From a virus: a DNA stretch of 64,000 nucleotides. Of this stretch, positions 317-15,443 are shown piece by piece. The notes beneath the pieces are model-generated. The model worked only from the letters and a program-made list of their open reading frames with translations. It did no database searches and was not told the origin of the DNA. The translations under genes and the position numbers were made by a program. The stretch lies in IMG/VR virus record IMGVR_UViG_3300020054_000866, positions 45,823 through 109,822 of that record. The stretch is one strand, 5' to 3'. Position 1 is the stretch's first letter, and each line of letters opens with the position of its first letter.

Positions 317-1318
317 ATGTTTATCGTCATCGAAGGCACTGACGCCTCGGGAAAGTCTACTCTTGTAGACGCTGTTGTCTCTGAACTCACCGGGCAGCGG
401 TCAACTGCCGGCGCGATTCAGTACCACAAGGGCGCGCCGAAAGAGTTCACTCGCAAAGGCGTACTTTCAGAGTACGTAGAAGACATTCAAGACTTCAACT
501 GGTTCTCAGCGACAGCAGTCGCTGATCGATGGCATTGGGGTGAGGTAACGTATGCTCCGATCAAGCGTCGTCATACTAACATTGACGGCTTTGGTCTACT
601 TGGCGTTGCTGGCTGGCGATGGACCGAGATGTTTCTTCGCGCTCGCGGCATTACTCAGTTTTGGCTGTATCAGCCGCTTGAGATTATTCAGCAAAGAATT
701 AGAGAACGCGGAGACGACTTTGTAGAAGAGCATGAGCTCGAGCATATTTTAAGTCTCTACTCTTATGCGTTCGACAACACCATGTCGTGCATTAAGTTGC
801 AGCCGTCAAACGGCGGATTAGATCAAGTAGCAAACCTGGCGCGTGACGTCATCAGCTACGCTAAGACATTGCAATCTGAAGTTCAGCATCTAGAAAGATT
901 TACTTGGTACATCGGACCTCCAAAGCCAAAGGCGCTTCTCGTCGGTGACGAAAGAAACGACGAGACTGACACGATGTTGCCTTTCAAGCCTTCCGGTGCA
1001 AATTCAGCAGACTATTTGTTGAACGCCCTACCGTGCGAAACCTGGCGCGACTACGGAATCATAAATTCTGCCGATGTCTATGGAGAAGACATCATACGAC
1101 TATATGAAGCTCTTAATCGGCCAAAAGTTATAGCCCTTGGTCGCATGGCAGAAAAGCGTCTTCGTCAATGCTCACTCTACGAAAGTCTATACACAGTTCT
1201 TCCGCATCCTCAACATGTTAGACGATTTCACTACTCTGATCAAACAGAGTATGGTCGCGCAATTGATAGCTTCGCAAACGGAAACACACAGGAGTATGCG
1301 TCATGGGTTCTTCGCTGA
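317..1318 (+). CDS. Thymidylate/dNMP kinase-like protein fused to a C-terminal uracil-DNA-glycosylase-like domain
   Basis: P-loop IEGTDASGKST and DRW motif of TMP kinases; C-terminal ALLVGDE...LPF...VIALGRMA...LPHPQ pattern of the UDG superfamily; SD ggaggg. Confidence 0.8.
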   Translation: MFIVIEGTDASGKSTLVDAVVSELTGQRSTAGAIQYHKGAPKEFTRKGVLSEYVEDIQDFNWFSATAVADRWHWGEVTYAPIKRRHTNIDGFGLLGVAGWRWTEMFLRARGITQFWLYQPLEIIQQRIRERGDDFVEEHELEHILSLYSYAFDNTMSCIKLQPSNGGLDQVANLARDVISYAKTLQSEVQHLERFTWYIGPPKPKALLVGDERNDETDTMLPFKPSGANSADYLLNALPCETWRDYGIINSADVYGEDIIRLYEALNRPKVIALGRMAEKRLRQCSLYESLYTVLPHPQHVRRFHYSDQTEYGRAIDSFANGNTQEYASWVLR

Positions 1319-2175
1319 CAGCAATTCACATCGAAGACGGAGTAAACGGCTACGTTGATCTTGTTCATCACGTGCTTGAGCACGGCCGCGAGGTGTCCCC
1401 ACGCGGTGTGAAGACAAGAGAAATTGAAGACGCAACTGTATTCATAGACAACGTGTACGACGCAATGCCGATGGGCGTTGGTCGAGGTGTCGTCCCGGGC
1501 ATTGGCGCCGTTGAGGCGTGCCAACTCGTCGCCGGTAGGAGCACGCCACGGACAGTGATTGCTATAGGTCCGCAGTTTACGAATTACGCTGAGAACAACG
1601 GAGAATTTCACGGAGCGTACGGTCTACGTACAAATGGCCAGTACGCTCACGTTGTAGACAAAATCAAGAGTGACCCAGACACGCGGCAAGCAGTCGTGAC
1701 GATCTGGAACCCTGAGTTTGACAACATGCCACAGAAGCGTGACTACCCATGCACAGTTCTTCATCAGTTTAGAGTTCGTGACGGCAAACTAAATATGAGT
1801 GTCTACATGCGCTCAAACGACGTGTGGCTTGGTGCAGCGTACGACTTTTTCCAGTTCACGCGGGTGCAGTTAGCGATCTGCTCGATACTTGGAATAGAGC
1901 CAGGCACGTATGCGCATCACGTTGGGTCGCTTCACATCTACGAGTCAAATATAGATGCGGTGACTAAGTTGCGTAAGACGAGCGCCCCTGTCGACCCAAT
2001 TCCGTATTTTGCTGGCAACTCGTGGGCAGACGTCGCACTATCTGCGCAGAACTGTCTTCTCGCCGTTGACCCCGAAGCTTTGCACGTACCGGAGCTAAAC
2101 GATACAGAGCTCTGGTACGTTAACGCAATGCGCTCCGCTATCGAGAGCAACGAGGCCAAACTCGGAAATGCCTAG
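1303..2175 (+). CDS. Thymidylate synthase family enzyme, probably dCMP hydroxymethylase-like
   Basis: DTRQAV, catalytic PC (YPCT), MRSNDVWLGAAYD, HHVGSLHIY; Asp at the position of ThyA Asn177. Confidence 0.85.
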   Translation: MGSSLTAIHIEDGVNGYVDLVHHVLEHGREVSPRGVKTREIEDATVFIDNVYDAMPMGVGRGVVPGIGAVEACQLVAGRSTPRTVIAIGPQFTNYAENNGEFHGAYGLRTNGQYAHVVDKIKSDPDTRQAVVTIWNPEFDNMPQKRDYPCTVLHQFRVRDGKLNMSVYMRSNDVWLGAAYDFFQFTRVQLAICSILGIEPGTYAHHVGSLHIYESNIDAVTKLRKTSAPVDPIPYFAGNSWADVALSAQNCLLAVDPEALHVPELNDTELWYVNAMRSAIESNEAKLGNA

Positions 2176-2380
2176 TGATGAAAACGAAGAAGCTTTTGAG
2201 TATGCGTCTCCGATGCATGCCGCAGCGATTGGCATGCACGAGATGTACATCACGCTGAAGTCTGCCGGGTTTTCAAGAACTGAAGCTCTCGAGTTGATAG
2301 CAAGAATGCTTTCATACGGAGTCACAGAGACTCTAATAATTGAGAGCGAGCTTGGTGACGATGACGACGACGACGACTAA
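2168..2380 (+). CDS. Small conserved actinophage-type protein (HEMY...AGFS.TEAL)
   Basis: Overlaps flanking genes; acidic tail. Confidence 0.7.
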   Translation: MPSDENEEAFEYASPMHAAAIGMHEMYITLKSAGFSRTEALELIARMLSYGVTETLIIESELGDDDDDDD

Positions 2381-2849
2381 CGCGCGGCCATCGTGGCAGT
2401 CGACATGGCTCACCGTTGCGACTGTTATTTCGCTGCGCTCACGGTGCTCAAGAGCGCAGATGGGCGCAGTTGTAGTGTCAAAAGACCAGCGTGTCTGCGC
2501 CACCGGCTATAACGGGCCGTCGGCGTCGTGGCCTGAAAGCGGCGACTGTATCGACTGGTGCCCAAGAGCGCGCGGCGAGTCACCACTAGACAACATCTAT
2601 GACCAGTGCCCGTCAATTCACGCTGAAGCAAACGCGCTGCTGTACGTAGACAGATCAAGCGTTGAAGGCGGAACAATATACATCACAAGTCCGCCGTGTA
2701 TGCAGTGCGCAAAGCTAATTACAAATTCCGGGTTGTTGCACGTCGTATGTTATATTGGCGAGCACGACATGCACCGCAATCCGTTGGATGTCGTCGAGTA
2801 CATTAAAAAGTGTGGAATAAGCGTTACGCTTGTCGCGCACTCGGAGTGA
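2361..2849 (+). CDS. dCMP deaminase
   Basis: RSRC..AQMGAV, TGYNG, HAEANA, PCMQC zinc motifs; ATG at 2361 preferred. Confidence 0.9.
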   Translation: MTTTTTNARPSWQSTWLTVATVISLRSRCSRAQMGAVVVSKDQRVCATGYNGPSASWPESGDCIDWCPRARGESPLDNIYDQCPSIHAEANALLYVDRSSVEGGTIYITSPPCMQCAKLITNSGLLHVVCYIGEHDMHRNPLDVVEYIKKCGISVTLVAHSE

Positions 2850-2855
2850 CGTATA

Positions 2856-4673
2856 GTGGCTGATCTTTCTCAAGTACAACTTCACCTTGTCAACAGCGTA
2901 GAGTCTGCGAATGACTTTCTTTCGTGGCTTAGCGAACGACGGCCACACAACGCCATCGCGATCGACACGGAGACGGGCGAGATACCTGGAAACCCGAGGC
3001 AGCATGCGCTGTCACCGTGGCACGGACGTCTTCGGCTAGTTCAGGTCGGTGATGGCATGCAGGGCTGGTCAATACCGTGGGACGAATGGTCGGGAGTGTT
3101 CTACCAGGCGATGGAGCGCTTTGACGGTCCGATCGTCTGCCACAACATCGCGTTCGAGGCACGCTGGTTTGAGACTCAGTCACGCTGGAAAATGCCATGG
3201 CATCGCGCGCATGACACGATGATTATGGCTCACATTGTCGACCCGCTTGGTTCAGGCGCACTGAAGCGTCTTGCCGCGCTGCACGTCGACGCGCGTGCAG
3301 TTGCATTACAAGACACTCTTGATCAAGAGCTATCAGCCAACGGTTGGACCTGGGGAACTGTTCCCACAAACTTTGAGCCGTACTGGTCGTATGGCGCGCT
3401 CGACTGCGTTCTTACAATGCGTCTCTGGGAAATGTTCTACGAAAAGTGCGGACCTAACGGCGCGTACCACAAACCGTATGAGCTCGAGATGGCGACTCGT
3501 AAGATCGTCACGAGAATGGAGATCAACGGCGCTCGAGTTGATCTTGACTACTCGCAGAGAAAGTACAACGAGCTTAGCTCATACACCGAGTCTGTAAAGA
3601 ACTGGGCTAAGAATACGTACAACGGAACTTCTATAACGAGCAACATACAACTTGTTCGGCTGTTTGAGAGTCTTGGCGCTGAGATCACTGAGTTTACTCC
3701 GACCGGTCAGAAGTCTTGCACAAAGGATCAATTGAGGCTGCTAGCACAGAGCCCGATAGCGGAGGTCGCTAATCTCGCGGACACTGTTCTCAAGCAGCGT
3801 AAGGCCGACAAACTTGCTGGAACGTACTTTCTAAACTTTCTCACTGAGTCAATTGACGGCATTGTTCACCCGTCTGTGAAGACTCTTGGCGCTCGAACGA
3901 GCAGAATGTCGATCACAAATCCGGCGCTACAGACATTGCCGAAAGGCGATGACGTTGTTCGCCGAGCGTTCATCCCAAAAGACGATGACCACGTGATTAT
4001 CACTTCTGACCTCGACCAGGTTGAGTTCAGAATGTTCGCGTCTCTATCTAAAGATCCAAATCTAATTACGCTGTTCAACAGGGCGGACGCAACTGGCTCT
4101 GACCCGTTCACGGAGATTGGCAGAGAGATCTACAACGATCCGACGATGCAGAAGTCCGATAAGCGCCGCGCGCTGATTAAAGGCACGGTGTACGGAAGAC
4201 TCTATGGCGCCGGTGTCGCGAAGCAAGCCGTAACTGCCGGCGTTCCTGAGCCACAGATGCGACAAGTTTCTGATGCATTTGATCGCAGATTTCCGGGCAT
4301 GTCGTACTTTCAAAAGCAGATCGAGGACGCCGGCATGCGAAGGTTGCAGAGCGAGGGCCAAGGCTACGTATATACGTGGACAGGAAGAAGACTGCCGTGC
4401 GACGAAGACAGAGTTTACACGCTTGTGAACTACCTCATTCAGGGTGGAGCGGCAGAGGTCTTCAAAGCAAATCTTGTCAAACTCGATCAAGCCGATTTGA
4501 CTGAACTTCTCATCGTCCCGGTTCACGACGAAATAGTTCTACAGGCGCCACGAAAAGACGCAGACGAGATCAAGCAGATAGTGAAGCAATGCATGACCAC
4601 GTCTGACGGCTGGGATGTGCCACTGACCGCTGACGTAGACGGCCCGCTAGAGACGTGGGGCGACAAGTACTAG
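2856..4673 (+). CDS. polA: DNA polymerase family A with 3'-5' exonuclease domain
   Basis: Exo I DTET, Exo II HN..FE, Exo III YGALD; motif A DLDQVEFR, motif B K...YGRLYG, motif C VHDE. Confidence 0.95.
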   Translation: MADLSQVQLHLVNSVESANDFLSWLSERRPHNAIAIDTETGEIPGNPRQHALSPWHGRLRLVQVGDGMQGWSIPWDEWSGVFYQAMERFDGPIVCHNIAFEARWFETQSRWKMPWHRAHDTMIMAHIVDPLGSGALKRLAALHVDARAVALQDTLDQELSANGWTWGTVPTNFEPYWSYGALDCVLTMRLWEMFYEKCGPNGAYHKPYELEMATRKIVTRMEINGARVDLDYSQRKYNELSSYTESVKNWAKNTYNGTSITSNIQLVRLFESLGAEITEFTPTGQKSCTKDQLRLLAQSPIAEVANLADTVLKQRKADKLAGTYFLNFLTESIDGIVHPSVKTLGARTSRMSITNPALQTLPKGDDVVRRAFIPKDDDHVIITSDLDQVEFRMFASLSKDPNLITLFNRADATGSDPFTEIGREIYNDPTMQKSDKRRALIKGTVYGRLYGAGVAKQAVTAGVPEPQMRQVSDAFDRRFPGMSYFQKQIEDAGMRRLQSEGQGYVYTWTGRRLPCDEDRVYTLVNYLIQGGAAEVFKANLVKLDQADLTELLIVPVHDEIVLQAPRKDADEIKQIVKQCMTTSDGWDVPLTADVDGPLETWGDKY

Positions 4674-4990
4674 TGAATAGGTACATGGAAAAAGCGATAG
4701 AGCTCGCTCACAGCAGCAAGTGCAGGCACAAGCACGGGTGCGTTGTAGTCAAAAACGGAAAGATCATTTCAAAAGCCACAAACAAAAAAGTCGGAGACCC
4801 GTCCGTGGAGTTTCGTCTCGCGCTTCACGCGGAGTTTGCGGCTGTTGTAGCGGCAGGAACGCACGCCGCGGGTTCAACAGTCTATGTAGCCAGAGTCCAA
4901 GCAGACGGCTCGACTGCGCTGTCTAAGCCTTGTAAGAAGTGTGAAAATATGATGAAAAGATCTGGAGTATCTAAGGTAGTGTGGACATGA
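4673..4990 (+). CDS. Small zinc-dependent cytidine/nucleotide deaminase-like protein
   Basis: KHGCVVV, HAE, SKPCKKC; GTG start overlapping polA stop. Confidence 0.8.
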   Translation: MNRYMEKAIELAHSSKCRHKHGCVVVKNGKIISKATNKKVGDPSVEFRLALHAEFAAVVAAGTHAAGSTVYVARVQADGSTALSKPCKKCENMMKRSGVSKVVWT

Positions 4991-5451
4991 CAATTTATTT
5001 GTGCGTCGATCCAGGAAAAATGAGCGGTATAGCCGCCATAAGCTACGACCATCAAGAAGCGCCAGAGCTAGTCGCGTCAGGCGAGTACGACGCCAGAAAC
5101 TATCATAAGCCGATCATAGAAACTATTGTAGCGTCTTATTACACTAAGACACCGATCAAGGTGATTTGTGAAAGGTTTACGATCAACGCGCAGACTGTTA
5201 AGAACTCTCAAGCGCCGTACAGTCTAGAGCAGATCGGAGTTCTCAAGCACTTGATGCTTGTAAATGGGCTTGAACCCGACGACATAGTGTTTCAGTCACC
5301 GTCAGACGCAAAGAGAATGTTTGACAACAGCGCACTGAAAAAGTTAGACTTTTGGCACAAAGGTGGAGACGGCCATGCGCTTGACGCGATACGTCACGGT
5401 TTGTTGGCAGTCACAAAGGATGGCTGGGTGCCTCGTGCTTTGTTACAATAG
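4987..5451 (+). CDS. RuvC-like Holliday junction resolvase
   Basis: VDPGKMSG, CERF, EQIG, HALDAIRH; ATGA overlap with upstream stop. Confidence 0.8.
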   Translation: MTIYLCVDPGKMSGIAAISYDHQEAPELVASGEYDARNYHKPIIETIVASYYTKTPIKVICERFTINAQTVKNSQAPYSLEQIGVLKHLMLVNGLEPDDIVFQSPSDAKRMFDNSALKKLDFWHKGGDGHALDAIRHGLLAVTKDGWVPRALLQ

Positions 5452-5540
5452 ATACTGAAGAAAAAACTTCAACATGTGCATACTTTGCACTGTAATATGT
5501 GATACAGTGATGATTACTCAACGACGACAAGAGGTTTTTA

Positions 5541-7337
5541 GTGGCAGTTCAGGTAGAACTAAGTCAAGACGGCTCCTCAATTCACATTCATGCTGAGTGG
5601 CGATACAAAGAGCTATGTAAGAGCATCCCCGGCGCGTCGTGGGCTGCAAAAGATGGTGTTTGGAAGGTTCCTACAAGTTGGGCCTCGTGCTTGGCACTGC
5701 GATCTGTCTTTCGCGAAGAACTTGAGATCGGTAGCAGACTAACAGACTGGGCAGTCAATGAGCGCACGTCACGAGTAGACCCGTGTAATTCACTCCGTGA
5801 GCTCGAGGCACTTCCAGACGGCGACGGCTACAATGAAGATCTGTTCCCGCACCAGCGCGCTGGAGTCGAGTTTCTCGCTGCTGCACGTCGCGCGCTTCTC
5901 GCCGATGAGCCGGGGCTAGGAAAAACAGCACAGGCTATTCGAGGATTAAAGAAAATCCAAGATCTCGGTGATGAGGTATTCCCGGCTCTCATCGTTTGCC
6001 CGAACACCGTCAAGAAAACTTGGAAACGCGAGTTTTCTCTTTGGTGGCCAGAGGTAAACGTTCAGGTTATCGCCGGGTCTGCGGCTCAGAGACGCAAGCA
6101 GTTTGAAGAAGAAGCAGACGTCTACGTGATCAACTGGGAATCTCTTCGAGCGCACTCAAGGCTTGCGCCATACGGGTCTGTTGCGCTTGCTCGATGCGTT
6201 GAGTGCGGGGGTCACGACGACAAAGTCAGTGAGACTCGTTGCGAGGTCCACCAACGTGAGCTAAATCAGATTGATTTCAAGGCGGTTGTAGCCGACGAGA
6301 TCCACAGATCGAAGGACCCAAAGAGCAAGCAGACGCGTGCGCTATGGTCTGCGACTGGCGAGGCCGACATTAGATTCGCGATGACTGGCACTCCAATCGC
6401 TAATGACGTTCTTGATTTTTGGCCGATTCTGCATTGGATTTCCCCCGAGGAGTGGCCGAGCAAGACTAGGTGGATCGACAGAATGGTCGACATCATGCTC
6501 AACGCATTTGGTGGCATGATGGTTCTTGGCGTAAAGCCGCACATGCGCGATGAGTTCTACGCCGCAATCAACCCGAGGATGCGTAGGATGCTTAAAGAGC
6601 GCGTGCTCCCATGGCTCCCGCCCGTAATCATGGACAGACGCGATGTCGAGATGTCGGCTAAGCAACGAAAAGCGTACACTCAGATGCAGGAAGTAATGAT
6701 CGCCGAACTGGAGCACGGCGATGCTATTACTGCGCCAAGTCCGTTGACACAGACACTTCGTCTACTTCAATTTGCAAGCTCTTTTGCGGAGATAGACGTA
6801 GACGAAATGACTGGAGAAATCCAAGTAAAGCTCGCTGAGCCATCGTGCAAGGTCGACGCGTTGATGGACGATATACAGAACGGAGACTTTGGAGATGACT
6901 CAGTTGCCGTCTGCGCTGTTTCTAGGCAGCTAATTGAACTGCTGAGCGCGCGCCTAGAAAAAGCCAAAATTCCTCACGGGCTAATCACAGGCGCACAGGA
7001 CGAAGACGAGCGTCAGCAGGCAATTGATGATTTCCAAGAAGGAAGAATCAAGTGGATTCTCTTCACCGCGCAGGCGGGTGGCGTTGGAGTGACGTTGACT
7101 GCTGCTCGGCGGCTTATCATGCTTCAGCGCCCGTGGTCACTTGTCGACTACAAACAGGCACTAGACAGAGTTCATCGCATCGGGTCAGAGATTCACGACT
7201 CTATTTTGATCACGGACTACGTTACCGAGGGCACTATTGAGGAGAGAGTCATTGACGTGCTGGACGTAAAATCTGAGAACTTTGAAGAAGTCGTTCAAGA
7301 TAAAGCAAAGCTTCTCAAGATGCTAAAGGGAGAGTGA
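5541..7337 (+). CDS. SNF2-family (SF2) helicase
   Basis: ADEPGLGKT, DEIH, MTGTPI, GGVGVTLT, QALDRVHRIG. Confidence 0.95.
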   Translation: MAVQVELSQDGSSIHIHAEWRYKELCKSIPGASWAAKDGVWKVPTSWASCLALRSVFREELEIGSRLTDWAVNERTSRVDPCNSLRELEALPDGDGYNEDLFPHQRAGVEFLAAARRALLADEPGLGKTAQAIRGLKKIQDLGDEVFPALIVCPNTVKKTWKREFSLWWPEVNVQVIAGSAAQRRKQFEEEADVYVINWESLRAHSRLAPYGSVALARCVECGGHDDKVSETRCEVHQRELNQIDFKAVVADEIHRSKDPKSKQTRALWSATGEADIRFAMTGTPIANDVLDFWPILHWISPEEWPSKTRWIDRMVDIMLNAFGGMMVLGVKPHMRDEFYAAINPRMRRMLKERVLPWLPPVIMDRRDVEMSAKQRKAYTQMQEVMIAELEHGDAITAPSPLTQTLRLLQFASSFAEIDVDEMTGEIQVKLAEPSCKVDALMDDIQNGDFGDDSVAVCAVSRQLIELLSARLEKAKIPHGLITGAQDEDERQQAIDDFQEGRIKWILFTAQAGGVGVTLTAARRLIMLQRPWSLVDYKQALDRVHRIGSEIHDSILITDYVTEGTIEERVIDVLDVKSENFEEVVQDKAKLLKMLKGE

Positions 7338-7338
7338 C

Positions 7339-8289
7339 ATGACAGTTCTAGAGACTCCGGTAGAAATCAAGCCAATACGCATATCCAACTCCGAGATTCA
7401 AACGTTTAAAGACTGTAGAAGAAAGTGGTGGCTAAGCTACTATAGAAGACTTCAGCCACGTGCACAAAAATACACTGGCCCACTGGCGCTCGGCACCAGG
7501 GTCCATGCGGCTCTAGACGAGTACTACTCGCAAGGAGTACCGCTTCTTGAGTCGTACGCAAAGTACGTCGAGATCGACAAGCAAGCGCTCATTGACTCGT
7601 TTAGGGACACAGTTGAACTTGACACTGAAGCCGAACTCGGCAGAATCATGCTTGAGGGCTACCTCGAGTGGGTAGAGGAAAACGGAATTGACGCAGAACT
7701 AGAGATGATCTCGACTGAGGAGATCATCAGCATGCCACTCTTCGATGGCAGAGTCGAGTTGCAGGGAAAACTTGACATGCGAGTCCGCAGAAAGGCGGAC
7801 GGTGTTCGACTGTTTAGAGACTTCAAGACAGTCGGTGGCTCGTTTGCAGAGTTCGCCAGTCTTGCTCACATGAATGAGCAGATTCTTACGTACATGCTTC
7901 TTGAAGCGTATCAGAACAAAGATGGCGAGCGCTGCGACGGTGGCATCTTTACGATGCTCAAGAAGGTGAAAAGAACTGCTAATGCAAAGCCTCCGTTCTA
8001 CGATCAGATAGAGGTTCGGCATAATCAGTTTACGCTAAGAACTTTTTGGAATCGCATACACGGAGTAATTCAAGACATGCTTCGAGTACGTGACGCTCTT
8101 GACGAAGGCTCTGACCCGCACTACGTTGCGTACCCGAGCCCCAGCCGAGATTGCAAGTGGAAATGTCAGTTTTTCGCTGTGTGCCCGCTGTTTGACGACG
8201 GTAGCGCAGCAGAGCAAGCACTTGAGGAGCTTTTCATTACAGATGACCCGTACAGCTATTATCAGACAAATGAGCCGAAAGGTAACTAA
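7339..8289 (+). CDS. Cas4/RecB-like PD-(D/E)XK exonuclease with Fe-S cysteines
   Basis: DCRRKW, GKLD...DFKT, C-terminal CKWKC.FFAVC. Confidence 0.88.
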   Translation: MTVLETPVEIKPIRISNSEIQTFKDCRRKWWLSYYRRLQPRAQKYTGPLALGTRVHAALDEYYSQGVPLLESYAKYVEIDKQALIDSFRDTVELDTEAELGRIMLEGYLEWVEENGIDAELEMISTEEIISMPLFDGRVELQGKLDMRVRRKADGVRLFRDFKTVGGSFAEFASLAHMNEQILTYMLLEAYQNKDGERCDGGIFTMLKKVKRTANAKPPFYDQIEVRHNQFTLRTFWNRIHGVIQDMLRVRDALDEGSDPHYVAYPSPSRDCKWKCQFFAVCPLFDDGSAAEQALEELFITDDPYSYYQTNEPKGN

Positions 8290-8292
8290 CAC

Positions 8293-9042
8293 ATGAGTGG
8301 TATTCAACGGTCGTTGACCATTATGGTCTACGGCGAGTCAAAGGTCGGAAAGTCGACATTCGCAGTGACAGCACCGTACCCGCGTCTCATGCTCGACGTG
8401 GAGGGCGGACACAGATTCCTCCCGATCAACGTAAAGTACTGGGACCCGATGCGCGAGGAGCCTCCTGTAGCAGATGGAAGCTGGGACACGTGCGTTGTCA
8501 ACGTGACCGAGTACGACACTGTTCTCAAGGCGTACCAGTGGCTGCAGCTCGGTAAGCATCAGTTCAAGTCGCTGATCATCGACTCGATCTCAGAGCTCCA
8601 GGTAAAGTGCGTCGACAGCATTGCTGGAAAGAATCAAATGCAGATGCAACAGTGGGGCGAGCTTCTTCGTCACATGGGCGGTCTGCTTCGAGATCTCCGC
8701 GATCTTACGATGCACCCAGTCGCGCCTCTGGAGGCGATCGTACTTACCGCGATGGCAAGAATGGGTCAAGACGGTCGCTATCGTCCGTACCTCCAGGGGC
8801 AGCTTGCCATTCAGGCACCGTACTTCTACGACATTCTCGGCGCGGTTACCGTCGAGACATTCCCAAATCCTGACCCAACGCAGCCGCCAATCAAGGCGCG
8901 TCAAATGTACGTCGAGCGTACTAGCGACTACGAGGCAGGCGAGCGTGTTCAGGGACGACTTGGTAAAGTCGTCGATCAACAGAATCTCAGCGTCGAGTCG
9001 ATGCTGGACATTGTCTTCGGCCCTCGGCCGAGTGAAAGCTAA
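8293..9042 (+). CDS. AAA_24 / Sak4-like ATPase (recombinase)
   Basis: YGESKVGKST, DVEGG, IIDSISE; lies between exonuclease and SSB. Confidence 0.85.
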   Translation: MSGIQRSLTIMVYGESKVGKSTFAVTAPYPRLMLDVEGGHRFLPINVKYWDPMREEPPVADGSWDTCVVNVTEYDTVLKAYQWLQLGKHQFKSLIIDSISELQVKCVDSIAGKNQMQMQQWGELLRHMGGLLRDLRDLTMHPVAPLEAIVLTAMARMGQDGRYRPYLQGQLAIQAPYFYDILGAVTVETFPNPDPTQPPIKARQMYVERTSDYEAGERVQGRLGKVVDQQNLSVESMLDIVFGPRPSES

Positions 9043-9076
9043 CAACAACAACAACACCAAAGGATAGGTGATAGAC

Positions 9077-9673
9077 ATGACTAGCCTCAACTGGGGTGAC
9101 CTCATCAGCGAAGCAGGGGATGTTGGCTACGAGCCACTTCCCGACGGCGACTACGATCTCAAGATCGTGGAGGCAAACGCCAAGGTGACTCAGACTGGAA
9201 AGACGATGTTCGCAGTCAAGGCGCAGGTTACGACTGGCGCCCACGCGAAGCGTCTCGTCTGGGACAATCTCGTCGTTTCGACCGACAACCCGAACGCTCT
9301 CGCGATCTTCTTCAGGAAGATGGGAGCTCTCGGTCTCGGTCGTGACTTCTTCTCAACCAACCCGAGCAACGCTCAGATCGAGCAGGCGCTTGTAGATCGC
9401 CCGTTCCGCGGGCAGGTTGGCAGCCGCACTTGGCAGGGCCAGAAGAAGAACGAGATCAAGGCGTACTACTCGGCCAATCCGGCGAACGCCGTTGCCGCGT
9501 CTGCCCCTCCCGCCGCAGCTGCGGCCCCTCCCGCTGCTGCGCCAGCGCCGCCCACGGCGCCGGCTCCGGCTCCGGCCGCGCCGGTCGCTGCGCCAGAGGC
9601 CGCGCCTGTTGCGGAAGCAGCGCCCGCTGCTGCTGAGGCAGCCCCCTCAGCGCCGCCTGCTGCGCCGTTCTGA
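9077..9673 (+). CDS. Single-stranded DNA-binding protein (DUF669-like) with Pro/Ala-rich tail
   Basis: EPLPDGDY...KTM...LVWDNL...KNEIK; C-terminal APF; position after Sak4-like gene. Confidence 0.75.
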   Translation: MTSLNWGDLISEAGDVGYEPLPDGDYDLKIVEANAKVTQTGKTMFAVKAQVTTGAHAKRLVWDNLVVSTDNPNALAIFFRKMGALGLGRDFFSTNPSNAQIEQALVDRPFRGQVGSRTWQGQKKNEIKAYYSANPANAVAASAPPAAAAAPPAAAPAPPTAPAPAPAAPVAAPEAAPVAEAAPAAAEAAPSAPPAAPF

Positions 9674-9685
9674 TAGCTGTAGGTG

Positions 9686-9735
9686 AGTCGCCCGCTCCGT
9701 CTTCAGGGGCGGGCGGCTAGCCTGCAATTTCTTTT
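9686..9735 (+). terminator. Probable intrinsic terminator/hairpin after SSB
   Basis: agtcgcccgctcc-gtcttca-ggggcgggcggct stem followed by a T-rich run. Confidence 0.65.
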
Positions 9736-9747
9736 CTAAGGACACAA

Positions 9748-10950
9748 ATGCGTATTCTAATGACAGGTTTTACCGCTCTGCAAATAAACACAGAGCGTAG
9801 AACGATCAAGAAGATCGACGTGCCAGCGTCTATTGCCGAAGCACTCGAGTCTCGAGGGCACTCTGTCGACTGGAGAAGAGTGACTCCCGGGGAAGATCTC
9901 TCATCATACGACGTCGCCTGGGTAAACCTTGCGCCGCTAAACTCGCTGAACGGTCGCCAGGGCGCGATGGGTGCGCTGTACACGCTCTCCTCTGGTCTGC
10001 CCGCCGTTGGATTCTTCGATGACTGGCAATTCGCCGCAGTGTTTAACGCGTCACGAGCGTTGAAGCGACATCCAGAGCTTCTGTATAAGTATCTATTGTC
10101 TGGGCCGAGAGGCGATGAGCCGGCGACGTACTACTCGTATGATGACGCGAAGGCAGCACTTGATCGCGTCGCGGCGAAGAACCCTGAGGACGCAGCGAAA
10201 TGCGGTCTTGGGCGGTACTTCTTCAATGACACTGACGAGAACATCAAGCTTTACGAAAACCAACTTGTCGCTGCTGGAGAGTCTATGCTCGCTGAGCGCT
10301 GGGCAGCAGGCCTTGTTCCGGCGTGCCCAATGTACGCGTTTGGTGATAGGCAGCTCGTAAGAAAGCGAATGCCTAAGGAAATGAATGGCATAGAAGCGCT
10401 CGACCCGAGCTCGACTATCTATAACATCCTAGCGAGCAGCGAGCCGCTGCCACCGGAGAGCAAGCAGAGATCGTGGGTTCTCGGCGCGCTGATGCCGCAC
10501 GATACGTGGCTAGAAAAGAAGAAGCCCGAGTGGCCGGTAGAAATCATCGGAAGCAGAAAGCTTATTAAGAAGTTCGGCGGGCAGCGTCTTGACACGGAAG
10601 AAGACGTTCTAGCGTTCTACAACAATCACTGGGGGATTCTGTCTCCGCCGTATCCACACGCTGGCAGCGGTTGGTGGAGAAGCAGATTTATGTACGCCGC
10701 TCGAGTTAGGTCTATTCTTGTAGTAGATAAAGGCGAAGGCGACCCTATCGGTGACGCGTACAAAATCACAATCAAACAAGTCGAGAGTATGAGCGACGCT
10801 GAGCTCGAGGAAACTGCCAGAGCGCAGGCCGAGTCTCTTCGCCCGTACATGCCAAGCTACGATTCTTTTGTAGATCACTGCGAAAGAATTGTTCTTAGGG
10901 CGATCAACGAAGACAAAGGTTTGAAGATACACCCAGACGGAAGTAGATGA
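9748..10950 (+). CDS. Putative DNA-modifying glycosyltransferase (GT-B-like), paralogue 1
   Basis: Rossmann-like N-terminus MRILMTG...EALESRGHSVDW...YDVAWV, FFDDWQ, C-terminal GILSPPY...GSGWWRSRF; nucleotide-modification context. Confidence 0.65.
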   Translation: MRILMTGFTALQINTERRTIKKIDVPASIAEALESRGHSVDWRRVTPGEDLSSYDVAWVNLAPLNSLNGRQGAMGALYTLSSGLPAVGFFDDWQFAAVFNASRALKRHPELLYKYLLSGPRGDEPATYYSYDDAKAALDRVAAKNPEDAAKCGLGRYFFNDTDENIKLYENQLVAAGESMLAERWAAGLVPACPMYAFGDRQLVRKRMPKEMNGIEALDPSSTIYNILASSEPLPPESKQRSWVLGALMPHDTWLEKKKPEWPVEIIGSRKLIKKFGGQRLDTEEDVLAFYNNHWGILSPPYPHAGSGWWRSRFMYAARVRSILVVDKGEGDPIGDAYKITIKQVESMSDAELEETARAQAESLRPYMPSYDSFVDHCERIVLRAINEDKGLKIHPDGSR

Positions 10951-11972
10951 TGAAAAACATCGCGGTGACTGGGATGACAGCATCTCAGTACTCAAGATCG
11001 CGCAATTCATCGTCACTAAGCTTTGTCGCCTGTCTAAGCGACGCTGCTACCATGTATGGAGACGACGTCCGTGTTTCGTGGATAAAGCCGTCTGTCTCTC
11101 ACGCGCAAAGCGACTTTGAAGAATACGATGCGATACTTGTCGGTCTTTCTCCTCTTCTAAGTCTTGCTTCTCACTGCGCGTACGGCGTTCTTAATGTCGT
11201 CGGCATGCTAAAGGGCGATCAACGACTGCACTTCTATATTGACGCTCCTGACCCGGCAAAGATACGTCAAAGTCTGAGCGCGATTGTAAAGACGCCAGAG
11301 TCGTTGAAAAAGCCGATCTATAAGAATAGAAACGAGTACTCTAAAGTTTCTGGCTCAAGTGAGATTGTAGACAGGCTCGCTGAGTCTGCTGAGTATCTGT
11401 ATTCAGACAAAAACTACAGAGTGCTGTACCCAGCGTTCTCGTTCACAGACGACGTTCACGTATCAAGAAAGTTGTTCGGGGAGGACTCGCTGAGAATGGT
11501 TCCGTTCAACTTCGATGCTCTATACACGAGGCAGGAAGTTGACGCAGTAATTTCAGCGGAGAAAAGCAAGCTATGGCTTGTAGAAAATCACAAGACGCGC
11601 TGGTTTGAGAGAATGAAAAATCTTCTTTCATATGACTGGGAACCGGTCAAAATTAAAAGAATGCAGCCGGACACCGTGTCACTAGACAGAATTTGCAGAT
11701 CCACGGGAACAATCATATGCCCGCAAAACGACTCAATTACGTGGTGGACGTACAGATTAGTGCAATCTTTAGCAGCTCTAGTCCCGGTTTGTACAGAATG
11801 GCGAGATACAATCTCTATCGGGCAGTCATGGTCTGCCATACCGCAGGCCGTCGAGTCGATGAGCATAGCGGAGAGATACTCTCTAGCATTAGAACAACTG
11901 GAGCAATACTCTCTATCTATTAGAGACGCAGAGACAGAGACATCTAGACTATTTAAGGAGCTTTCACTCTAA
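10947..11972 (+). CDS. Putative glycosyltransferase-like protein, paralogue 2
   Basis: Aligns with upstream gene (IAVTGMTASQ/ILMTGFTALQ; YDAILVGLSPLLSL/YDVAWVNLAPLNSL; WWTYRL/WWRSRF). Confidence 0.6.
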   Translation: MMKNIAVTGMTASQYSRSRNSSSLSFVACLSDAATMYGDDVRVSWIKPSVSHAQSDFEEYDAILVGLSPLLSLASHCAYGVLNVVGMLKGDQRLHFYIDAPDPAKIRQSLSAIVKTPESLKKPIYKNRNEYSKVSGSSEIVDRLAESAEYLYSDKNYRVLYPAFSFTDDVHVSRKLFGEDSLRMVPFNFDALYTRQEVDAVISAEKSKLWLVENHKTRWFERMKNLLSYDWEPVKIKRMQPDTVSLDRICRSTGTIICPQNDSITWWTYRLVQSLAALVPVCTEWRDTISIGQSWSAIPQAVESMSIAERYSLALEQLEQYSLSIRDAETETSRLFKELSL

Positions 11973-12445
11973 TGAACATTCTATTTAATCAGTGGCTTGA
12001 AAAGACAAAGAAGCTTCAATCAGAAGTCTACGGTGTAGATTACTCCGTGTTTCATAGCGACAGCCCAGAAGATCTTCGAGCGCTTATCGAGTACATCCGC
12101 TGGAACATGCTTGCTATTGATGACGAGCTCTCGGAGGTTCGCAAGGCGATTTCTTGGAAGCCTTGGCAGCACGACGAGCCGTACGCTGATCGCCGCGAGA
12201 TTCTCAAGGAATGCGTAGACGTTCTTCATTTTGTCGCTAACATTCTCTGCGCCGCTGGTGCACTTGATGAAGATCTTGATTCTGAGTACATCGCAAAGAT
12301 GCAAATCAACGCGAATAGACAGAAGGCCGGGTACAGAGTTCTTGATGACGGCATGAAGTGCAAACTGTGCGCGCGTGCCTTAGACGACTACGACACCTCC
12401 TCGTGTAAGGAAGACGGGTGCCCGCAGCGTCATGGAGTCGTCTGA
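11972..12445 (+). CDS. All-alpha dNTP pyrophosphatase (dimeric dUTPase / T4 gp56 dCTPase-like)
   Basis: DELSE...SWKPW...KECVDVLHF...AK..IN..RQ..GY; Cys-rich C-terminus. Confidence 0.85.
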   Translation: MNILFNQWLEKTKKLQSEVYGVDYSVFHSDSPEDLRALIEYIRWNMLAIDDELSEVRKAISWKPWQHDEPYADRREILKECVDVLHFVANILCAAGALDEDLDSEYIAKMQINANRQKAGYRVLDDGMKCKLCARALDDYDTSSCKEDGCPQRHGVV

Positions 12446-12677
12446 GTTCGCGTGGGTTGATGTTTCAGCCCAGACAATCAAGCAAGGTGACGTACTGCGA
12501 GTAAAGCTCGATGCGTACACGACTTCTGCTGGAAAAATGCACAACGGGCGGCTAGTTCGAGTAAGAGAAGTAAAAGACGGAGACGTAAGAGTACACACTA
12601 TTGACTTAAAGACACCACATATCAACGACGCGAGGCACGCGCCTCATCGTCTTGAACGGAAGGTAAGCGTTTTATGA
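12432..12677 (+). CDS. Hypothetical protein, SH3/KOW-like
   Basis: IKQGDVLRVK...HNGR pattern; translationally coupled. Confidence 0.65.
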   Translation: MESSEFAWVDVSAQTIKQGDVLRVKLDAYTTSAGKMHNGRLVRVREVKDGDVRVHTIDLKTPHINDARHAPHRLERKVSVL

Positions 12678-12868
12678 GAGCAATAGTAAGATTTACAGCC
12701 GTCGGTAGTGACATCGAAGAGCTGCTATCAAAACTTAGAGAAGAATGGGCGTCGCTGTCAAATGGAAAAGACTTCCCAAGAGACAGCTCGATTGACATAG
12801 ACAAGTTAGAAGAAACTGACGAAAAATACAGGGCCGTGTGCACCGCTCGAGTTAATATAGAAACCTGA
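12674..12868 (+). CDS. Hypothetical protein
   Basis: ATGA-coupled ORF in operon. Confidence 0.65.
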   Translation: MRAIVRFTAVGSDIEELLSKLREEWASLSNGKDFPRDSSIDIDKLEETDEKYRAVCTARVNIET

Positions 12869-12873
12869 GGAAA

Positions 12874-13182
12874 ATGACAAAAAAGATTGAAACCACGAGC
12901 GAGTCTCCAAGAGAGAAGATGCTTTCGGAGGCAGCAAAAATTATCTCTGGAGAGCGTGATCTTCAGTACGGCGGACCGGAAGACAATTTCCAAAGAATCG
13001 CGTCGCTATGGTCAGTCATTTTTGACAGAGACTTCAGCAAAGAAGATGTCGCAATGGCAATGATCGCAGTAAAACTCGCGCGATTTTCTTCCAACTACGG
13101 ATTTCAACCAGACACCTGGACGGACATCGCGGGGTACGCGGCGTGCGGTTACGAGGTCGGGTTGATCGACTCAGGAGAGTGA
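12874..13182 (+). CDS. DUF6378-like phage protein
   Basis: GER..QYG.PEDNF.RIA.LWS...VKLAR...DTWTDIAGYA. Confidence 0.8.
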   Translation: MTKKIETTSESPREKMLSEAAKIISGERDLQYGGPEDNFQRIASLWSVIFDRDFSKEDVAMAMIAVKLARFSSNYGFQPDTWTDIAGYAACGYEVGLIDSGE

Positions 13183-13183
13183 C

Positions 13184-14431
13184 ATGAGCACGAAAAAGTT
13201 TATCGACTGCAACGGCCTCGCTGGCTTCATGAGCCTTGGCTTTGTAAACTCCGGAATGGAGATGCTGGCAAGGACTGGGACGTTGAACTTCGGTAATCCA
13301 GTTGCAGAAGTGAATAGACATCATCTCGGCAACTCGTGGAACTCGTCATTCTCCGATGATCCGAGCGACTGGCCTGATATGGAAGCAGACATTGTTCTCG
13401 GCTGCCCGCCGTGCTCTGGATGGTCTCTATGGTCTGGCCCGGCAAACCGCGGGCCTGATGCTAAGGCTCACGAGCATACTCGCGCGTTCATGAGATACGC
13501 AGCTCGCATCAAGCCGAAGATGATTGTCTTTGAATGTGTGCAGCAAGCGTACACTCAAGGACGACCAATGATGAATCAGTATCGTCAAATGGTAGAGGAT
13601 CTCTCAGGCAAGCAGTACGATCTCTATCACGTCAAGCACAACAATCTCCAGGTCGGCGGATTCTCATATCGCATGCGGTACTTCTGGGTTGCTGTTGAAA
13701 AAGGCATGCCGTTTGGCGCTCACGCTGAGACGCCTAGCGAGATGCCTAGAATGATAGACGTAATTGGTGACCTCGAGCACTGCGAGATCACGTGGGACCG
13801 ACAGGCGTACTCCAACGACGGGTCGAAGTACGTTGCCGATCTCAGAAACCAAGACGGTACTGTTGACGGTCACATGAACAAGACAAATCTCGAGTCGCAG
13901 AGAATTCAAGAAATCTTTGACATCATCGGCAACGATGGTTGGAAGCCGATGAAGCAGATGAACGAGGCTCTTAAGCTCGCCGTCGAGATGAACGGAGGGT
14001 ACTTTCCACAGAGCTGGAGCAACAAAGAAGACAAGATTCGCGCCAATGACTTCTACATGGGGTTCTCACTCCCAGCAAGATGGGACGCTGAATCTTTCTG
14101 CCACGTGCTCACCGGTAGCGCGCTCGATCACGTCGTGCACCCAACGCAGCCGAGAAGAATCACTCACAGGGAGGCGGCAAGAATTCAAGGCCTTCCCGAT
14201 GATTGGGAAATCGTCGCCGCGAAGGACTACACCCCGCAGAGCGCGACTTGGGGCAAGGCAGTGGCGGTGCAGGCGGCTAACTGGATCGGAGAGGCCTGCT
14301 CAGCGGCCTTAGACGGCCAGCCAAACGGTCCACAGGGTGAATTGATTGGTGATCGCGAATACCTTCTCGACACTGACAAGGGCTTTAGTAGAAACTTCGT
14401 CAAGAAGAACTTCTACCAGCGAGAAGACTAA
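13184..14431 (+). CDS. C5-cytosine DNA methyltransferase homologue with remodelled cofactor site
   Basis: Catalytic GCPPCSGWS, FECV (ENV variant), YRMRY, HPTQPRRIT.REAARIQG.PDDW; motif I DCNGLAGF and motif X WGKAV deviate from consensus. Confidence 0.85.
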   Translation: MSTKKFIDCNGLAGFMSLGFVNSGMEMLARTGTLNFGNPVAEVNRHHLGNSWNSSFSDDPSDWPDMEADIVLGCPPCSGWSLWSGPANRGPDAKAHEHTRAFMRYAARIKPKMIVFECVQQAYTQGRPMMNQYRQMVEDLSGKQYDLYHVKHNNLQVGGFSYRMRYFWVAVEKGMPFGAHAETPSEMPRMIDVIGDLEHCEITWDRQAYSNDGSKYVADLRNQDGTVDGHMNKTNLESQRIQEIFDIIGNDGWKPMKQMNEALKLAVEMNGGYFPQSWSNKEDKIRANDFYMGFSLPARWDAESFCHVLTGSALDHVVHPTQPRRITHREAARIQGLPDDWEIVAAKDYTPQSATWGKAVAVQAANWIGEACSAALDGQPNGPQGELIGDREYLLDTDKGFSRNFVKKNFYQRED

Positions 14432-14502
14432 GTCGTTCTAAAGAAAGCGCCATTTGATATAGTGGCGGCAGACAGTAGCTGTCAACTAATACGGAGCGAC
14501 GC

Positions 14503-15015
14503 ATGCAATCATTTCTAGTCTCGACTGACTCGTTTGAGACAACAGCAAAAGTACTAGACAACAAGCGCCTGCATAAGCAGACTCTTGAGGCATGGCAGTG
14601 CTTGCTAACAATCTCTGGCCTAGACCCAGAGGGCAACGACCGAAACCCTAAGGGCTGGGTGAATCACCCAGTTGTAAAAATGTGGCGCGGCTACGAGACA
14701 GTGTTTGTCTCATACATCTCGGCTACGTACTTCGAGTGGCGATCGCGCGGGTACAAATCAACTCTTCTTGAGAAAACGTACAGAACGTACGATCTAGCAG
14801 TCTCACTAGGCCGTGTCTCTTCCGAGTATCGACTCCCACCATGGATGCAAGACTCTACGTACTTTAGCAGCCTATGTTCTACTCATCGGACCGCACTCCT
14901 GTGCAAGAACTACGAGTGGTACCATCAGTTCGGCTGGCCAGAGGACTCGGGGACTGCACCAGAGACGTACGAGTACTTGTGGCCTCATCAAGACGGCTAC
15001 GTCATCGCCGGCTAA
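14503..15015 (+). CDS. Pyrimidine-dimer DNA glycosylase family (MSMEG_6728 / T4 endonuclease V-like)
   Basis: MQSFL...LD.KRL.KQ.LEA.Q...GW.NHP..KMWRGYE...HR.ALL.K...YLWP. Confidence 0.85.
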   Translation: MQSFLVSTDSFETTAKVLDNKRLHKQTLEAWQCLLTISGLDPEGNDRNPKGWVNHPVVKMWRGYETVFVSYISATYFEWRSRGYKSTLLEKTYRTYDLAVSLGRVSSEYRLPPWMQDSTYFSSLCSTHRTALLCKNYEWYHQFGWPEDSGTAPETYEYLWPHQDGYVIAG

Positions 15016-15101
15016 TCGGCTGAGATGGCCCTAGAGTTCCGCACAATAAACTCTACGATATTGCTCCGATAAGCAATGGTCATAGTATAGAATTATTCGG
15101 T

Positions 15102-15443
15102 ATGAATGATTCACGCCCGGGCGAGACTCTATGGTCTGAGTGGTTAGGTGAAGACTACTCTTTATTCTCGAGCGGCGGAATTGTCTACTACACTATCGAG
15201 CACGTGGACATCGAGAATGAAGTTGTAAAGCGCGCTTTGGCATCGTCTCTTCAAAGAGATGGAGTAGCTCTCTCCTTAGGTGAAGGCTACAAATTTGTCG
15301 AGTCAGGTGTGCCGACACATGGATACGTCGGATACACAGACGGAGACGACGAGCCAACAGTTTGCGATTCCGACGGAGAGACATACTACGGTGACGAAAT
15401 CGACGAGGTGCTAGAAGCTACCTGGGTCGAAATCGATGCCTAG
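15102..15443 (+). CDS. Hypothetical acidic protein
   Basis: ORF preceded by TAGAAT -10-like box, coupled to WhiB gene. Confidence 0.7.
   Translation: MNDSRPGETLWSEWLGEDYSLFSSGGIVYYTIEHVDIENEVVKRALASSLQRDGVALSLGEGYKFVESGVPTHGYVGYTDGDDEPTVCDSDGETYYGDEIDEVLEATWVEIDA

Follow-up and report, generated by a model that had tools for sequence, protein, structure and literature searches.

The analysed window of 64,000 nucleotides, taken from an uncultured freshwater actinobacterial phage, contains a T4-type set of genes for sugar-coated hydroxymethylcytosine that adjoins the phage's own DNA polymerase gene. The respective module extends from position 317 to position 15939 of the window; six of its parts were confirmed, and the genes listed in the original prediction were all found in place and co-oriented on the plus strand, to which every coordinate given here refers. 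The polymerase gene (2856..4673) encodes a family A enzyme, PolA (PF00476, E 2e-54), with a 3'-5' exonuclease domain (PF01612). A gene for a WhiB-family regulator (15436..15939; PF02467, E 2.4e-16), which suggests that the host is actinobacterial, is the end marker of the plus-strand module, and the DenV-type pyrimidine-dimer DNA glycosylase gene (14503..15015; PF03013, E 6.7e-15) is a syntenic neighbour that probably lies outside the pathway. The module additionally includes a conserved 70-aa open reading frame between the thymidylate-synthase homologue and the deaminase genes (2168..2380), which was detected by tblastn with 37-65% identity in related loci, and, immediately before the methyltransferase-like gene, a gene for a DUF6378 protein (12874..13182; PF19905, E 1.4e-26), which was not found at the corresponding position in GodonK or Kurnik.

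The gene at 1303..2175 specifies a thymidylate-synthase (TS) homologue (PF00303, E 4e-27) that is predicted to be a dCMP hydroxymethylase of the T4 gp42 type. The meaning of the diagnostic TS positions has been set out and D169N homologues have been tested experimentally; accordingly, N177D together with L143D is the signature of cytosine C5-modifying TS homologues and not of dTMP synthases, and 5hodCMP synthases carry D169N (PMC13326640). Sequence and PDB alignments revealed that the protein keeps Cys146 and D169 and carries L143D and N177D, the last of which bears out the anticipated dCMP-type Asp at the position of E. coli N177. All four residues are invariant (34 of 34 homologues), and the signature agrees with that of T4 gp42, RB69 gp48 differing by D169N. 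Because the homologue keeps Asp169 while 5hodCMP synthases are D169N, its product is predicted to be 5-hydroxymethyl-dCMP and neither 5-hydroxy-dCMP nor dTMP, a predicted specificity that is read from three residues of the sequence.

The gene at 317..1318 immediately precedes that of the TS homologue, an arrangement also seen in GodonK, in Kurnik and in the RB69, DLP3 and RL38JI clusters. Residues 1-189 of its product form a Tmk/YorR-like P-loop nucleotide kinase, to which a UDG-superfamily domain (residues 190-333) is fused. Both halves of the proposed kinase-UDG fusion were recovered. The kinase half matches phrog_761 'thymidylate kinase' (E 5.6e-14) and YorR 2axp (E 0.001), and the UDG-like half was recognised by its Atlas model, with a TM-score of 0.70 to an archaeal UDG-family cluster, and by the conserved motifs GD.RN, LPF.P..GNS and HPQ(Y/H)V, its Pfam UDG match (E 0.028) being under the family cut-off. 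The fusion is preserved in 28 relatives and is the sole nucleotide-kinase candidate found in the record, where no gp1-type kinase was present; its kinase half is a predicted 5hm-dCMP kinase.

The expected dCTPase-like protein is encoded at 11972..12445 as an all-alpha NTP pyrophosphatase, which matches PF08761 (dUTPase_2; E 2.6e-11), a family that also matches T4 gp56 itself, and is homologous to the T4 gp56 dCTPase/dUTPase (BLASTP, E 3e-10 to the dCTPase). The closest solved sequence relatives of the pyrophosphatase are dUTPases, and the exclusion of dCTP is therefore only assumed. A dCMP deaminase gene, the counterpart of T4 cd (2340..2849; PF00383, E 2.6e-17), occupies an equivalent place in DSL-LC01, GodonK and Kurnik. 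The gene for a second, small deaminase of the CDA fold (4655..4990; PF00383, E 1.6e-13) occurs in a subset of relatives only (loci L018, L026-L040 and L066).

The two genes that had been described as glycosyltransferase-like paralogues stand in tandem and encode proteins of the GT-B fold, GT1 (P0002; 9748..10950) and GT2 (P0003; 10947..11972), whose families are homologous along their entire length (hhalign, probability 100%, E 1.9e-42). Neither protein matches PF09198 or another Pfam family in a Pfam search. The AlphaFold2 (AF2) model of GT1 (pLDDT 96.9) has T4 BGT as its best structural match (Z 18-19.4) and also matches T4 AGT (Z 16.9), with many non-DNA GT-B glycosyltransferases only 1-3 Z units under T4 BGT, and GT1 is predicted to be a DNA 5hmC glycosyltransferase. 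GT2 is a fast-evolving paralogue with 28-59% identity to its counterparts in all related loci but one, compared with 70-88% for the neighbouring genes, and its Atlas model reaches TM-scores of 0.56-0.64 to GT4/GT1-type clusters. The GT1 family comprises 601 representative clusters and accompanies TS homologues of the gp42 type in four distinct groups of phages; this pairing was seen in Gordonia phages, in a Manatee Spring siphovirus and among T4-like Aeromonas phages, namely in phiAS4. In phage DSL-LC01, a UDP-galactopyranose mutase gene separates the two glycosyltransferase genes, and such a mutase is also encoded by the cytosine-glycosylating phage RL38JI (PMC13326640).

The gene at 13184..14431 encodes an enzyme of the C5-cytosine-methyltransferase fold (PF00145, E 8e-23; Z 21-24 to DNMT1, HaeIII and HhaI) with a remodelled cofactor site, here called the GK type, so that the cofactor-remodelled Dcm homologue announced for this position is a conserved member of PF00145 with an altered cofactor site. 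The protein retains the side chains for base flipping and covalent activation of cytosine, since the Cys of PPC, the Glu of ENV and the RxR motif are invariant in the family. Its motif X Asn is replaced by Lys in 53 of 53 sequences, and in motifs I-III the contacts to SAM differ from the usual ones: strand 2 ends in R-T-G and strand 3 in F-S, where the SAM-binding Glu and Asp are normally located. With one inserted residue permitted, motif I still reads x-x-G-x-(A/G)-G, and by sequence the glycine loop may persist even though the Phe that stacks on adenine is gone. Canonical use of SAM is probably not to be expected of such a protein. The GK-type family is a phage-only relative of the cytosine methyltransferases; all 46 bacterial genome matches are ordinary enzymes with GNA(V/F/L), their motif IV is PCQ wherever it is aligned, and the motif X Lys is absent from them. 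In the phage collection, the family is confined to 15 records, each of which also carries a gp42-type TS homologue (15/15).

A gene-neighbourhood comparison supported the supposed co-occurrence of the module genes across phages. In 80 of 80 related IMG/VR loci each module gene that is reached by the contig is present and the gene order is unchanged, and a common core is shared with phage DSL-LC01, Gordonia phages (GodonK, GMA2, Sixama and others) and Micrococcus phage Kurnik. Much of this pattern goes back to the vertical inheritance of a single replication module.

From gene identities, diagnostic residues, folds, synteny and co-occurrence we infer all enzymatic steps and the final base, and the module probably represents a T4-type pathway for cytosine replacement and decoration in an actinobacterial phage with a family A polymerase. 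The gp56-like pyrophosphatase would convert dCTP, and probably likewise dUTP, to the monophosphate, and the TS homologue would form 5-hydroxymethyl-dCMP from dCMP, methylene-tetrahydrofolate and water. The Tmk-like kinase would phosphorylate this product to the diphosphate, an NDP kinase of the host would complete the triphosphate and PolA would incorporate 5hmdC in place of dC, while the dCMP deaminase would supply dUMP for the host dTMP synthase in the manner of T4 cd. After replication, the tandem GT-B enzymes would glycosylate the 5-CH2OH group with NDP-sugars as donors, and the fast-diverging GT2 may determine how the sugar is linked or attach a second one. The part of the original prediction according to which a C5-modified dCTP is built and then decorated is thus sustained by the experimentally calibrated residues, the gp56 homology, the BGT-like GT-B model and the co-occurrence of glycosyltransferase and TS genes.

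The closest parallel is the glucosyl-5-hydroxymethylcytosine pathway of T4 (gp56, gp42, gp1, cd, alpha- and beta-glucosyltransferase), with which the module shares a gp42-type TS with identical diagnostic residues, a gp56-family pyrophosphatase, a dCMP deaminase, a dedicated nucleotide kinase and two GT-B transferases, the first matching T4 BGT best. It differs from T4 in the actinobacterial host, the family A polymerase, the Tmk/YorR-like kinase with its UDG-fold fusion in place of a gp1-like enzyme, the separate sequence family of the glycosyltransferases and the additional C5-methyltransferase-fold enzyme. A Tmk-like kinase, a cytosine-specific TS and GT-B transferases are likewise found in the glycosyl-5-hydroxycytosine clusters of RB69, DLP3 and RL38JI, the last of which DSL-LC01 resembles in its added UDP-galactopyranose mutase, but the TS homologues of these clusters carry D169N (PMC13326640). 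The module also resembles systems of thymidine hypermodification in a P-loop kinase with a glycosylase-like fold and a TS-family hydroxymethylase accompanied by a dCMP deaminase. Those systems reportedly employ a 5-hmdU DNA kinase and an aGPT-Pplase (Lee et al. 2018; Iyer et al. 2013), whereas the TS homologue described here has the cytosine-type Asp, the kinase resembles mononucleotide kinases and the 5-HMUDK and aGPT-Pplase families gave no Pfam match.

The GK-type enzyme is a member of the conserved module outside what the T4 scheme explains. A cytosine-activating enzyme makes little sense at fully C5-substituted cytosine, which may mean that cytosine is replaced only in part or that the scheme has a gap. 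Of the paradox seen earlier in a C5-methyltransferase fold, the enzyme proved real and conserved, but other resolutions are available, for instance that 5hmC or the DNA of the host is its substrate; the proposed novel base or two-route modification was not demonstrated by the computed results. We consider it unlikely, though worth stating, that the enzyme acts without SAM on 5hmC in DNA or on a derivative thereof, the Cys at C6 activating 5-CH2-OX for removal or for exchange with another nucleophile, which would give a new hypermodified cytosine instead of, or besides, glycosyl-5hmC. The invariant catalytic residues next to the replaced Phe, Glu and Asp contacts, the restriction to records with a gp42-type TS homologue and the invariant Lys, which lacks a bacterial equivalent and lies at the position of the transferred group where CmoX binds the C5 substituent by an Arg, are consistent with this chemistry, and ordinary C5-methyltransferases deprived of cofactor are said to add or remove formaldehyde at C5 and to couple thiols to 5hmC (Klimasauskas laboratory). 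On the other hand, a candidate co-substrate gene is lacking, the co-occurrence with the TS homologue may be inherited synteny and a nucleoside cofactor may still be bound by the motif I glycine loop.

That the enzyme is a CmoX-like alkyltransferase, which would use carboxy-SAM or another charged analogue of SAM on residual or site-specific unmodified cytosines as a second route beside hmC, appears improbable. CmoX is a phage DNA cytosine C5-carboxymethyltransferase (PDB 8YF3; PMC12783734), to which the GK-type protein is similar in fold (8yf3, Z 18.2), and the exchange of the motif X Asn for a basic residue beside the transferred group parallels Arg350 of CmoX and the engineered M.MpeI N374K that accepts carboxy-SAM. 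However, the basic residue is Lys here, the sequence similarity to 8yf3 is confined to residues 66-198, and complete replacement would leave little unmodified cytosine. The enzyme is not CmoX itself, and further differences weigh against a CmoX-like activity: the adenosine contacts Phe25, Glu47 and Asp69 retained by CmoX are not conserved in the GK-type family, motif IV is (C/N)PPC and not SPPC, no CmoA gene was found in the 82%-complete record and no CmoY gene is present, and the enzyme resides within an hmC-type module. It is similarly doubtful that the gene encodes an ordinary, divergent orphan SAM-dependent C5-methyltransferase that would be unrelated to an otherwise plain T4-like hmC pathway. 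The protein passes the PF00145 cut-off, a one-residue shift restores G-x-(A/G)-G in motif I, and the genes of DSL-LC01, the Gordonia phages and Kurnik are annotated as 'methyltransferase'; yet four separate SAM-pocket positions are altered and then invariant across 35% sequence divergence, the bacterial matches uniformly show the GNA(V/F/L) and PCQ motifs described above, and fully hmC-containing DNA offers no cytosine for methylation.

We assign a very low probability to a module that does not serve DNA modification at all, with the TS homologue acting in salvage and the GT-B pair in the glycosylation of cell wall or virion. Lipid- and glycan-acting GT-B enzymes do score near T4 BGT, and the authors of DSL-LC01 read the UDP-galactopyranose mutase as a cell-wall auxiliary gene, but N177D with L143D is typical of cytosine C5-modifying TS homologues. 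Moreover, in every relative the glycosyltransferase genes are part of the replication module, flanked by recombination genes on one side and the dCTPase gene on the other, and their family tracks gp42-type enzymes over unrelated phages. The T4-like replacement of dC by 5hmdC, followed by glycosylation on DNA, is the reading of the sequence that we regard as likely.

The genes of the predicted modification pathway lie in the window, which covers the final 64 kb of an IMG/VR virus record with a length of 109.8 kb and a completeness of 82% as estimated by CheckV. They belong to a single co-oriented block on the plus strand (positions 317-15939) that starts with a kinase-UDG fusion, followed in order by a TS homologue, a 70-aa ORF, a dCMP deaminase and PolA (2856-4673). 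The block continues with a small deaminase, an ORF designated RuvC-like after the gene at this position in the annotation of phage DSL-LC01, a SNF2 helicase, a PD-(D/E)XK nuclease, a Sak4-like ATPase and DUF669, and then with the glycosyltransferase genes GT1 and GT2, a gp56-like pyrophosphatase, two small ORFs and DUF6378 (12874-13182). The last part comprises the C5-methyltransferase-like (MTase-like) gene, DenV, a 113-aa ORF and WhiB. The original prediction had described the fusion, the TS homologue, the pyrophosphatase, the glycosyltransferase pair and the MTase-like gene as co-oriented with PolA, and this observation was confirmed. The genes downstream of WhiB are encoded on the opposite strand and are structural in appearance. 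The minus-strand ORF at 16377-18008 was considered as a counterpart of the halogenase or glycosyltransferase of DSL-LC01; this assignment was rejected since the ORF looks structural, and the module thus ends at WhiB. The minus strand also carries a single ORF of 5188 aa (35155-50721) that far exceeds every other gene of the record in size.

A search with GT1 matched 173 IMG/VR stretches, making the module abundant in freshwater viromes. All 80 loci examined among these stretches contain every module gene within reach of the contig, and in the same order, which bears out the co-occurrence in relatives that had been named as a check of the pathway. The conserved gene order across the 80 loci is mostly a matter of shared descent, and independent support is provided by parts of the gene set recurring in Gordonia, Micrococcus, Manatee Spring and T4-like phages.

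The TS homologue (1303-2175) matched PF00303 with 95.4 bits (cut-off 24.3). Specificity can be read from certain positions of E. coli ThyA, with N177D indicating dCMP instead of dUMP as substrate, L143D/E indicating access of water and hence a product that carries a hydroxymethyl in place of a methyl group, and D169N characterizing the flavin-dependent 5-hydroxy-dCMP synthases (PMC13326640). A multiple sequence alignment of ThyA, T4 gp42 and RB69 gp48 with the window protein and the corresponding proteins of DSL-LC01, Gordonia phage GodonK and Micrococcus phage Kurnik revealed the segments D-Y-P-C and R-S-N-D...Y-D in the window protein, corresponding to L143D, Cys146, a retained D169 and N177D (ThyA numbering). 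All four diagnostic residues are shared with T4 gp42, whereas RB69 gp48, representing the 5-hydroxy-dCMP synthase type, reads R-S-Q-N instead of R-S-N-D. The same four residues were detected in all 34 collected TS homologues. On the basis of this gp42-type residue set, the protein is predicted to be a dCMP hydroxymethylase that would form 5hm-dCMP from dCMP and methylene-THF. The active-site segments of the Kurnik TS homologue (2008-2757 of its locus) are strikingly close to those of T4 gp42 (D-F-I-C-T-N-T-V-Q-Y and R-S-N-D...N-D-Y-A-W-Q), suggesting an exchange of TS genes between very distant phage groups.

The N-terminal half of the kinase-UDG fusion (317-1318) gave matches to profiles of phage 'thymidylate kinases' as well as to the structure of YorR, and a Tmk/YorR-like kinase is likewise present in the cytosine clusters of RB69, DLP3 and RL38JI. 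A search of the 82%-complete record for a gp1-type dNMP kinase or further nucleotide-kinase candidates yielded none; as the sole candidate, the fusion protein is likely to be the hm-dCMP kinase. Its C-terminal 145 residues gave a weak match to the Pfam UDG model PF03167 (E 0.028; 14.9 bits, below the gathering cut-off of 24.3), and the Atlas model of this half showed a TM score of 0.70 to a cluster with PF03167 in 100% of its members. Additionally, the language-model-feature neighbours include UDG-containing proteins. As judged from the model, the C-terminal half is thus predicted to adopt the UDG alpha/beta fold. Its conserved motifs resemble UDG motifs A and B. The catalytic motif A of UDG family 4 is GE.PG; no motif of this type was detected in the UDG-like half, which has GD(E/K/Q)RN at this position. 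In 28 relatives the fusion is retained, and gp315 of Bacillus phage G has it as well; the kinases of the Gordonia phages and Kurnik are devoid of the UDG half.

The ORF at 11972-12445 matched PF08761, the family of all-alpha NTP pyrophosphatases, with 44.5 bits (cut-off 22.9), and a pairwise BLASTP comparison with the T4 dCTPase gp56, itself a member of PF08761, resulted in an E value of 3e-10. The solved structures nearest in sequence are dUTPases. The protein was classified as a gp56-like pyrophosphatase with putative dCTP/dCDP hydrolysis activity. The 169-aa dCMP deaminase (2340-2849) is kept in all lineages. A second CDA-fold deaminase of 111 aa (4655-4990) overlaps the end of PolA and occurs in only some of the relatives, being absent from DSL-LC01.

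Three other routes to a modified base were weighed against the predicted T4-like pathway. The combination of a kinase-UDG fusion with two deaminases had prompted a reading as thymidine hypermodification by an hmU kinase and an aGPT-Pplase. This reading was rejected, as the TS homologue carries the cytosine-type Asp177 and a general Pfam scan, run at an E value of 0.01 for the whole fusion and of 10 for its C-terminal half, yielded no match to 5-HMUDK or aGPT-Pplase. A 5-hydroxycytosine route of the RB69 gp48 type was rejected on account of the Asp, not Asn, at position 169 in 34 of 34 TS homologues, and a TET/JBP route, in which 5mC would be oxidized to 5hmC and then linked to a sugar, on account of the absence of PF12851 from the record. 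The predicted T4-like pathway of hydroxymethylcytosine formation and glycosylation is well supported.

The proteins encoded by GT1 (9748-10950) and GT2 (10947-11972) matched no Pfam model, even at an E value of 10. Sequence membership in PF09198 (T4-Gluco-transf) was not found for either protein, the only link of the pair to this family being an Atlas feature neighbour with PF09198 in 40% of its members. A plain homologue search with GT1 returned relatives of 65-94% identity only, and a deep alignment required an all-against-all search of 1.84 billion representatives that yielded 601 GT1-related clusters. The AlphaFold2 model of GT1, calculated from a 78-sequence alignment, reached a pLDDT of 96.9 and was recognized by Foldseek and VIA-align as a GT-B fold with two Rossmann domains. 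The best structural match was the T4 beta-glucosyltransferase (Z 18-19.4 with 292-306 aligned residues), the T4 alpha-glucosyltransferase reached Z 16.9, and generic GT-B enzymes scored within 1-3 Z units below the beta-glucosyltransferase. Homology between the GT2 family and GT1 extends over the full length (hhalign E 1.9e-42), and the Atlas model of GT2 matched GT4-type clusters. Both families occur in tandem in GodonK. GT1 relatives were also identified in T4-like Aeromonas phages and a Manatee Spring siphovirus, and in both cases the TS homologue shows the D/C/D/D signature. The predicted transfer of a sugar to DNA 5hmC is based on this genomic context, namely the co-occurrence with gp42-type TS homologues. 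If this prediction is true, the 601 representative clusters would constitute a large new family of DNA glycosyltransferases.

No gene of the block evolves faster than GT2, which shares 28-59% identity (in most cases 28-44%) with its counterparts in the related loci L009-L088, one near-identical contig being left out of this range, compared with 70-88% for the neighbouring genes. In an otherwise rigid block, it has the appearance of a cassette that diversifies or is swapped, and its divergence would fit a diversification of the sugar or the linkage. In the T4-like Aeromonas phage phiAS4, three tandem hypothetical genes specifying proteins of about 350 aa each are located near a topoisomerase gene (3895-7167 of its locus); the middle one belongs to the GT1 family, and the three genes may represent a triple DNA glycosyltransferase array.

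In the literature searched, 5hmC-type DNA replacement has been characterized only for phages infecting Gram-negative hosts, namely T4-like ones and a few others, and no report was found of such a replacement in actinophages or of the DNA chemistry of phages carrying this module. The papers on Gordonia phage GMA2 and DSL-LC01 interpreted the respective genes as coding for ordinary methylases or glycosyltransferases, or as auxiliary genes for the cell wall. Since cultured Gordonia and Micrococcus phages carry the module as well, the prediction is testable at once by LC-MS. If true, it would account for a likely restriction resistance of the module-bearing phages and would call for the re-annotation of genes labelled 'thymidylate synthase', 'thymidylate kinase', 'methyltransferase' or 'hypothetical'.

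The claim of a novel base depends solely on the MTase-like enzyme (13184-14431). This protein passed the PF00145 threshold with 81.8 bits, and its AF2 model superposed on DNMT1, ZMET2, HaeIII and HhaI with Z 21-24 and on CmoX, a phage DNA cytosine C5-carboxymethyltransferase (PDB 8YF3), with Z 18.2. With a mean pLDDT of 71.9 and a poorly modelled target-recognition region (residues 232-323), the model confirms the fold and the strand positions, is uninformative on the cofactor and resembles CmoX no more closely than it does HhaI or DNMT1. A comparison of 53 homologues, including those of GodonK and Kurnik with about 35% identity, demonstrated that the residues binding and activating cytosine are invariant in all 53 sequences, comprising the PPC Cys of motif IV, the Glu of motif VI, the RxR of motif VIII and motif IX. 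An alignment with HaeIII detected none of the canonical SAM contacts, which are the Phe of motif I, the Glu of motif II, the Asp of motif III and the Asn of motif X. The Phe position is occupied by N/H, or by C/V under a one-residue shift that keeps the G-x-(A/G)-G loop, the acidic position at the end of strand 2 by Gly32 within an invariant R30-T31-G32 turn, and the Asp position at the end of strand 3 by Phe56, followed by Ser57. The Asn of motif X is replaced by Lys358, with Lys present in 53 of 53 homologues. Among 50,697 phage genomes, the family was restricted to 15 records, representing DSL-LC01, Kurnik and 13 Gordonia phage records, and each of the 15 also encodes a gp42-type TS homologue. 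A search of species-representative prokaryote genomes with the family profile returned only ordinary GNAV-type methyltransferases, with at most 26% identity over long matches. The retained catalytic residues, the altered SAM contacts and the limitation to phages with a gp42-type TS lead us to regard the enzyme as functional and specific to phages of this kind, and as probably not a canonical SAM methyltransferase.

In CmoX, the Asn of motif X is replaced by an Arg that grips the carboxymethyl group of carboxy-SAM, and the adenosine contacts are kept (PMC12783734), whereas the MTase-like protein differs at the SAM-contact positions. The engineered M.MpeI variant N374K, in which a Lys takes the place of this Asn, behaves like CmoX. 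An identity with CmoX was nevertheless rejected, as the SPPC motif and Arg350 were not found, the corresponding features being CPPC or NPPC and a Lys. Moreover, CmoX is paired with the carboxy-SAM synthase CmoA, for which the model TIGR00740 gave no match in the 82%-complete record. A tentative and rather unlikely proposal is that the family, with its invariant Lys and without the SAM contacts, represents a novel type of enzyme for DNA base modification, so far confined to actinophages with a gp42-type dCMP hydroxymethylase, that would have 5-hydroxymethylcytosine as its substrate or depend on a non-SAM or anionic cofactor, thereby generating an undescribed cytosine hypermodification, in which the kinase-UDG fusion could play a part at the DNA level. 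If true, this C5-MTase-fold family with a rebuilt cofactor pocket could be of use as a tool enzyme and contribute a new DNA-modifying activity. An obligate partnership of DUF6378 with the MTase-like gene was rejected, since DUF6378 is not conserved at the corresponding position of the GodonK and Kurnik genomes. DSL-LC01, the closest published relative, contains two extra module genes (14324-15421 and 17808-18320 of its locus), encoding a UDP-galactopyranose mutase inserted between its two glycosyltransferase genes and, just upstream of the MTase-like gene, a 170-aa protein without a Pfam match that is annotated as a class I SAM methyltransferase.
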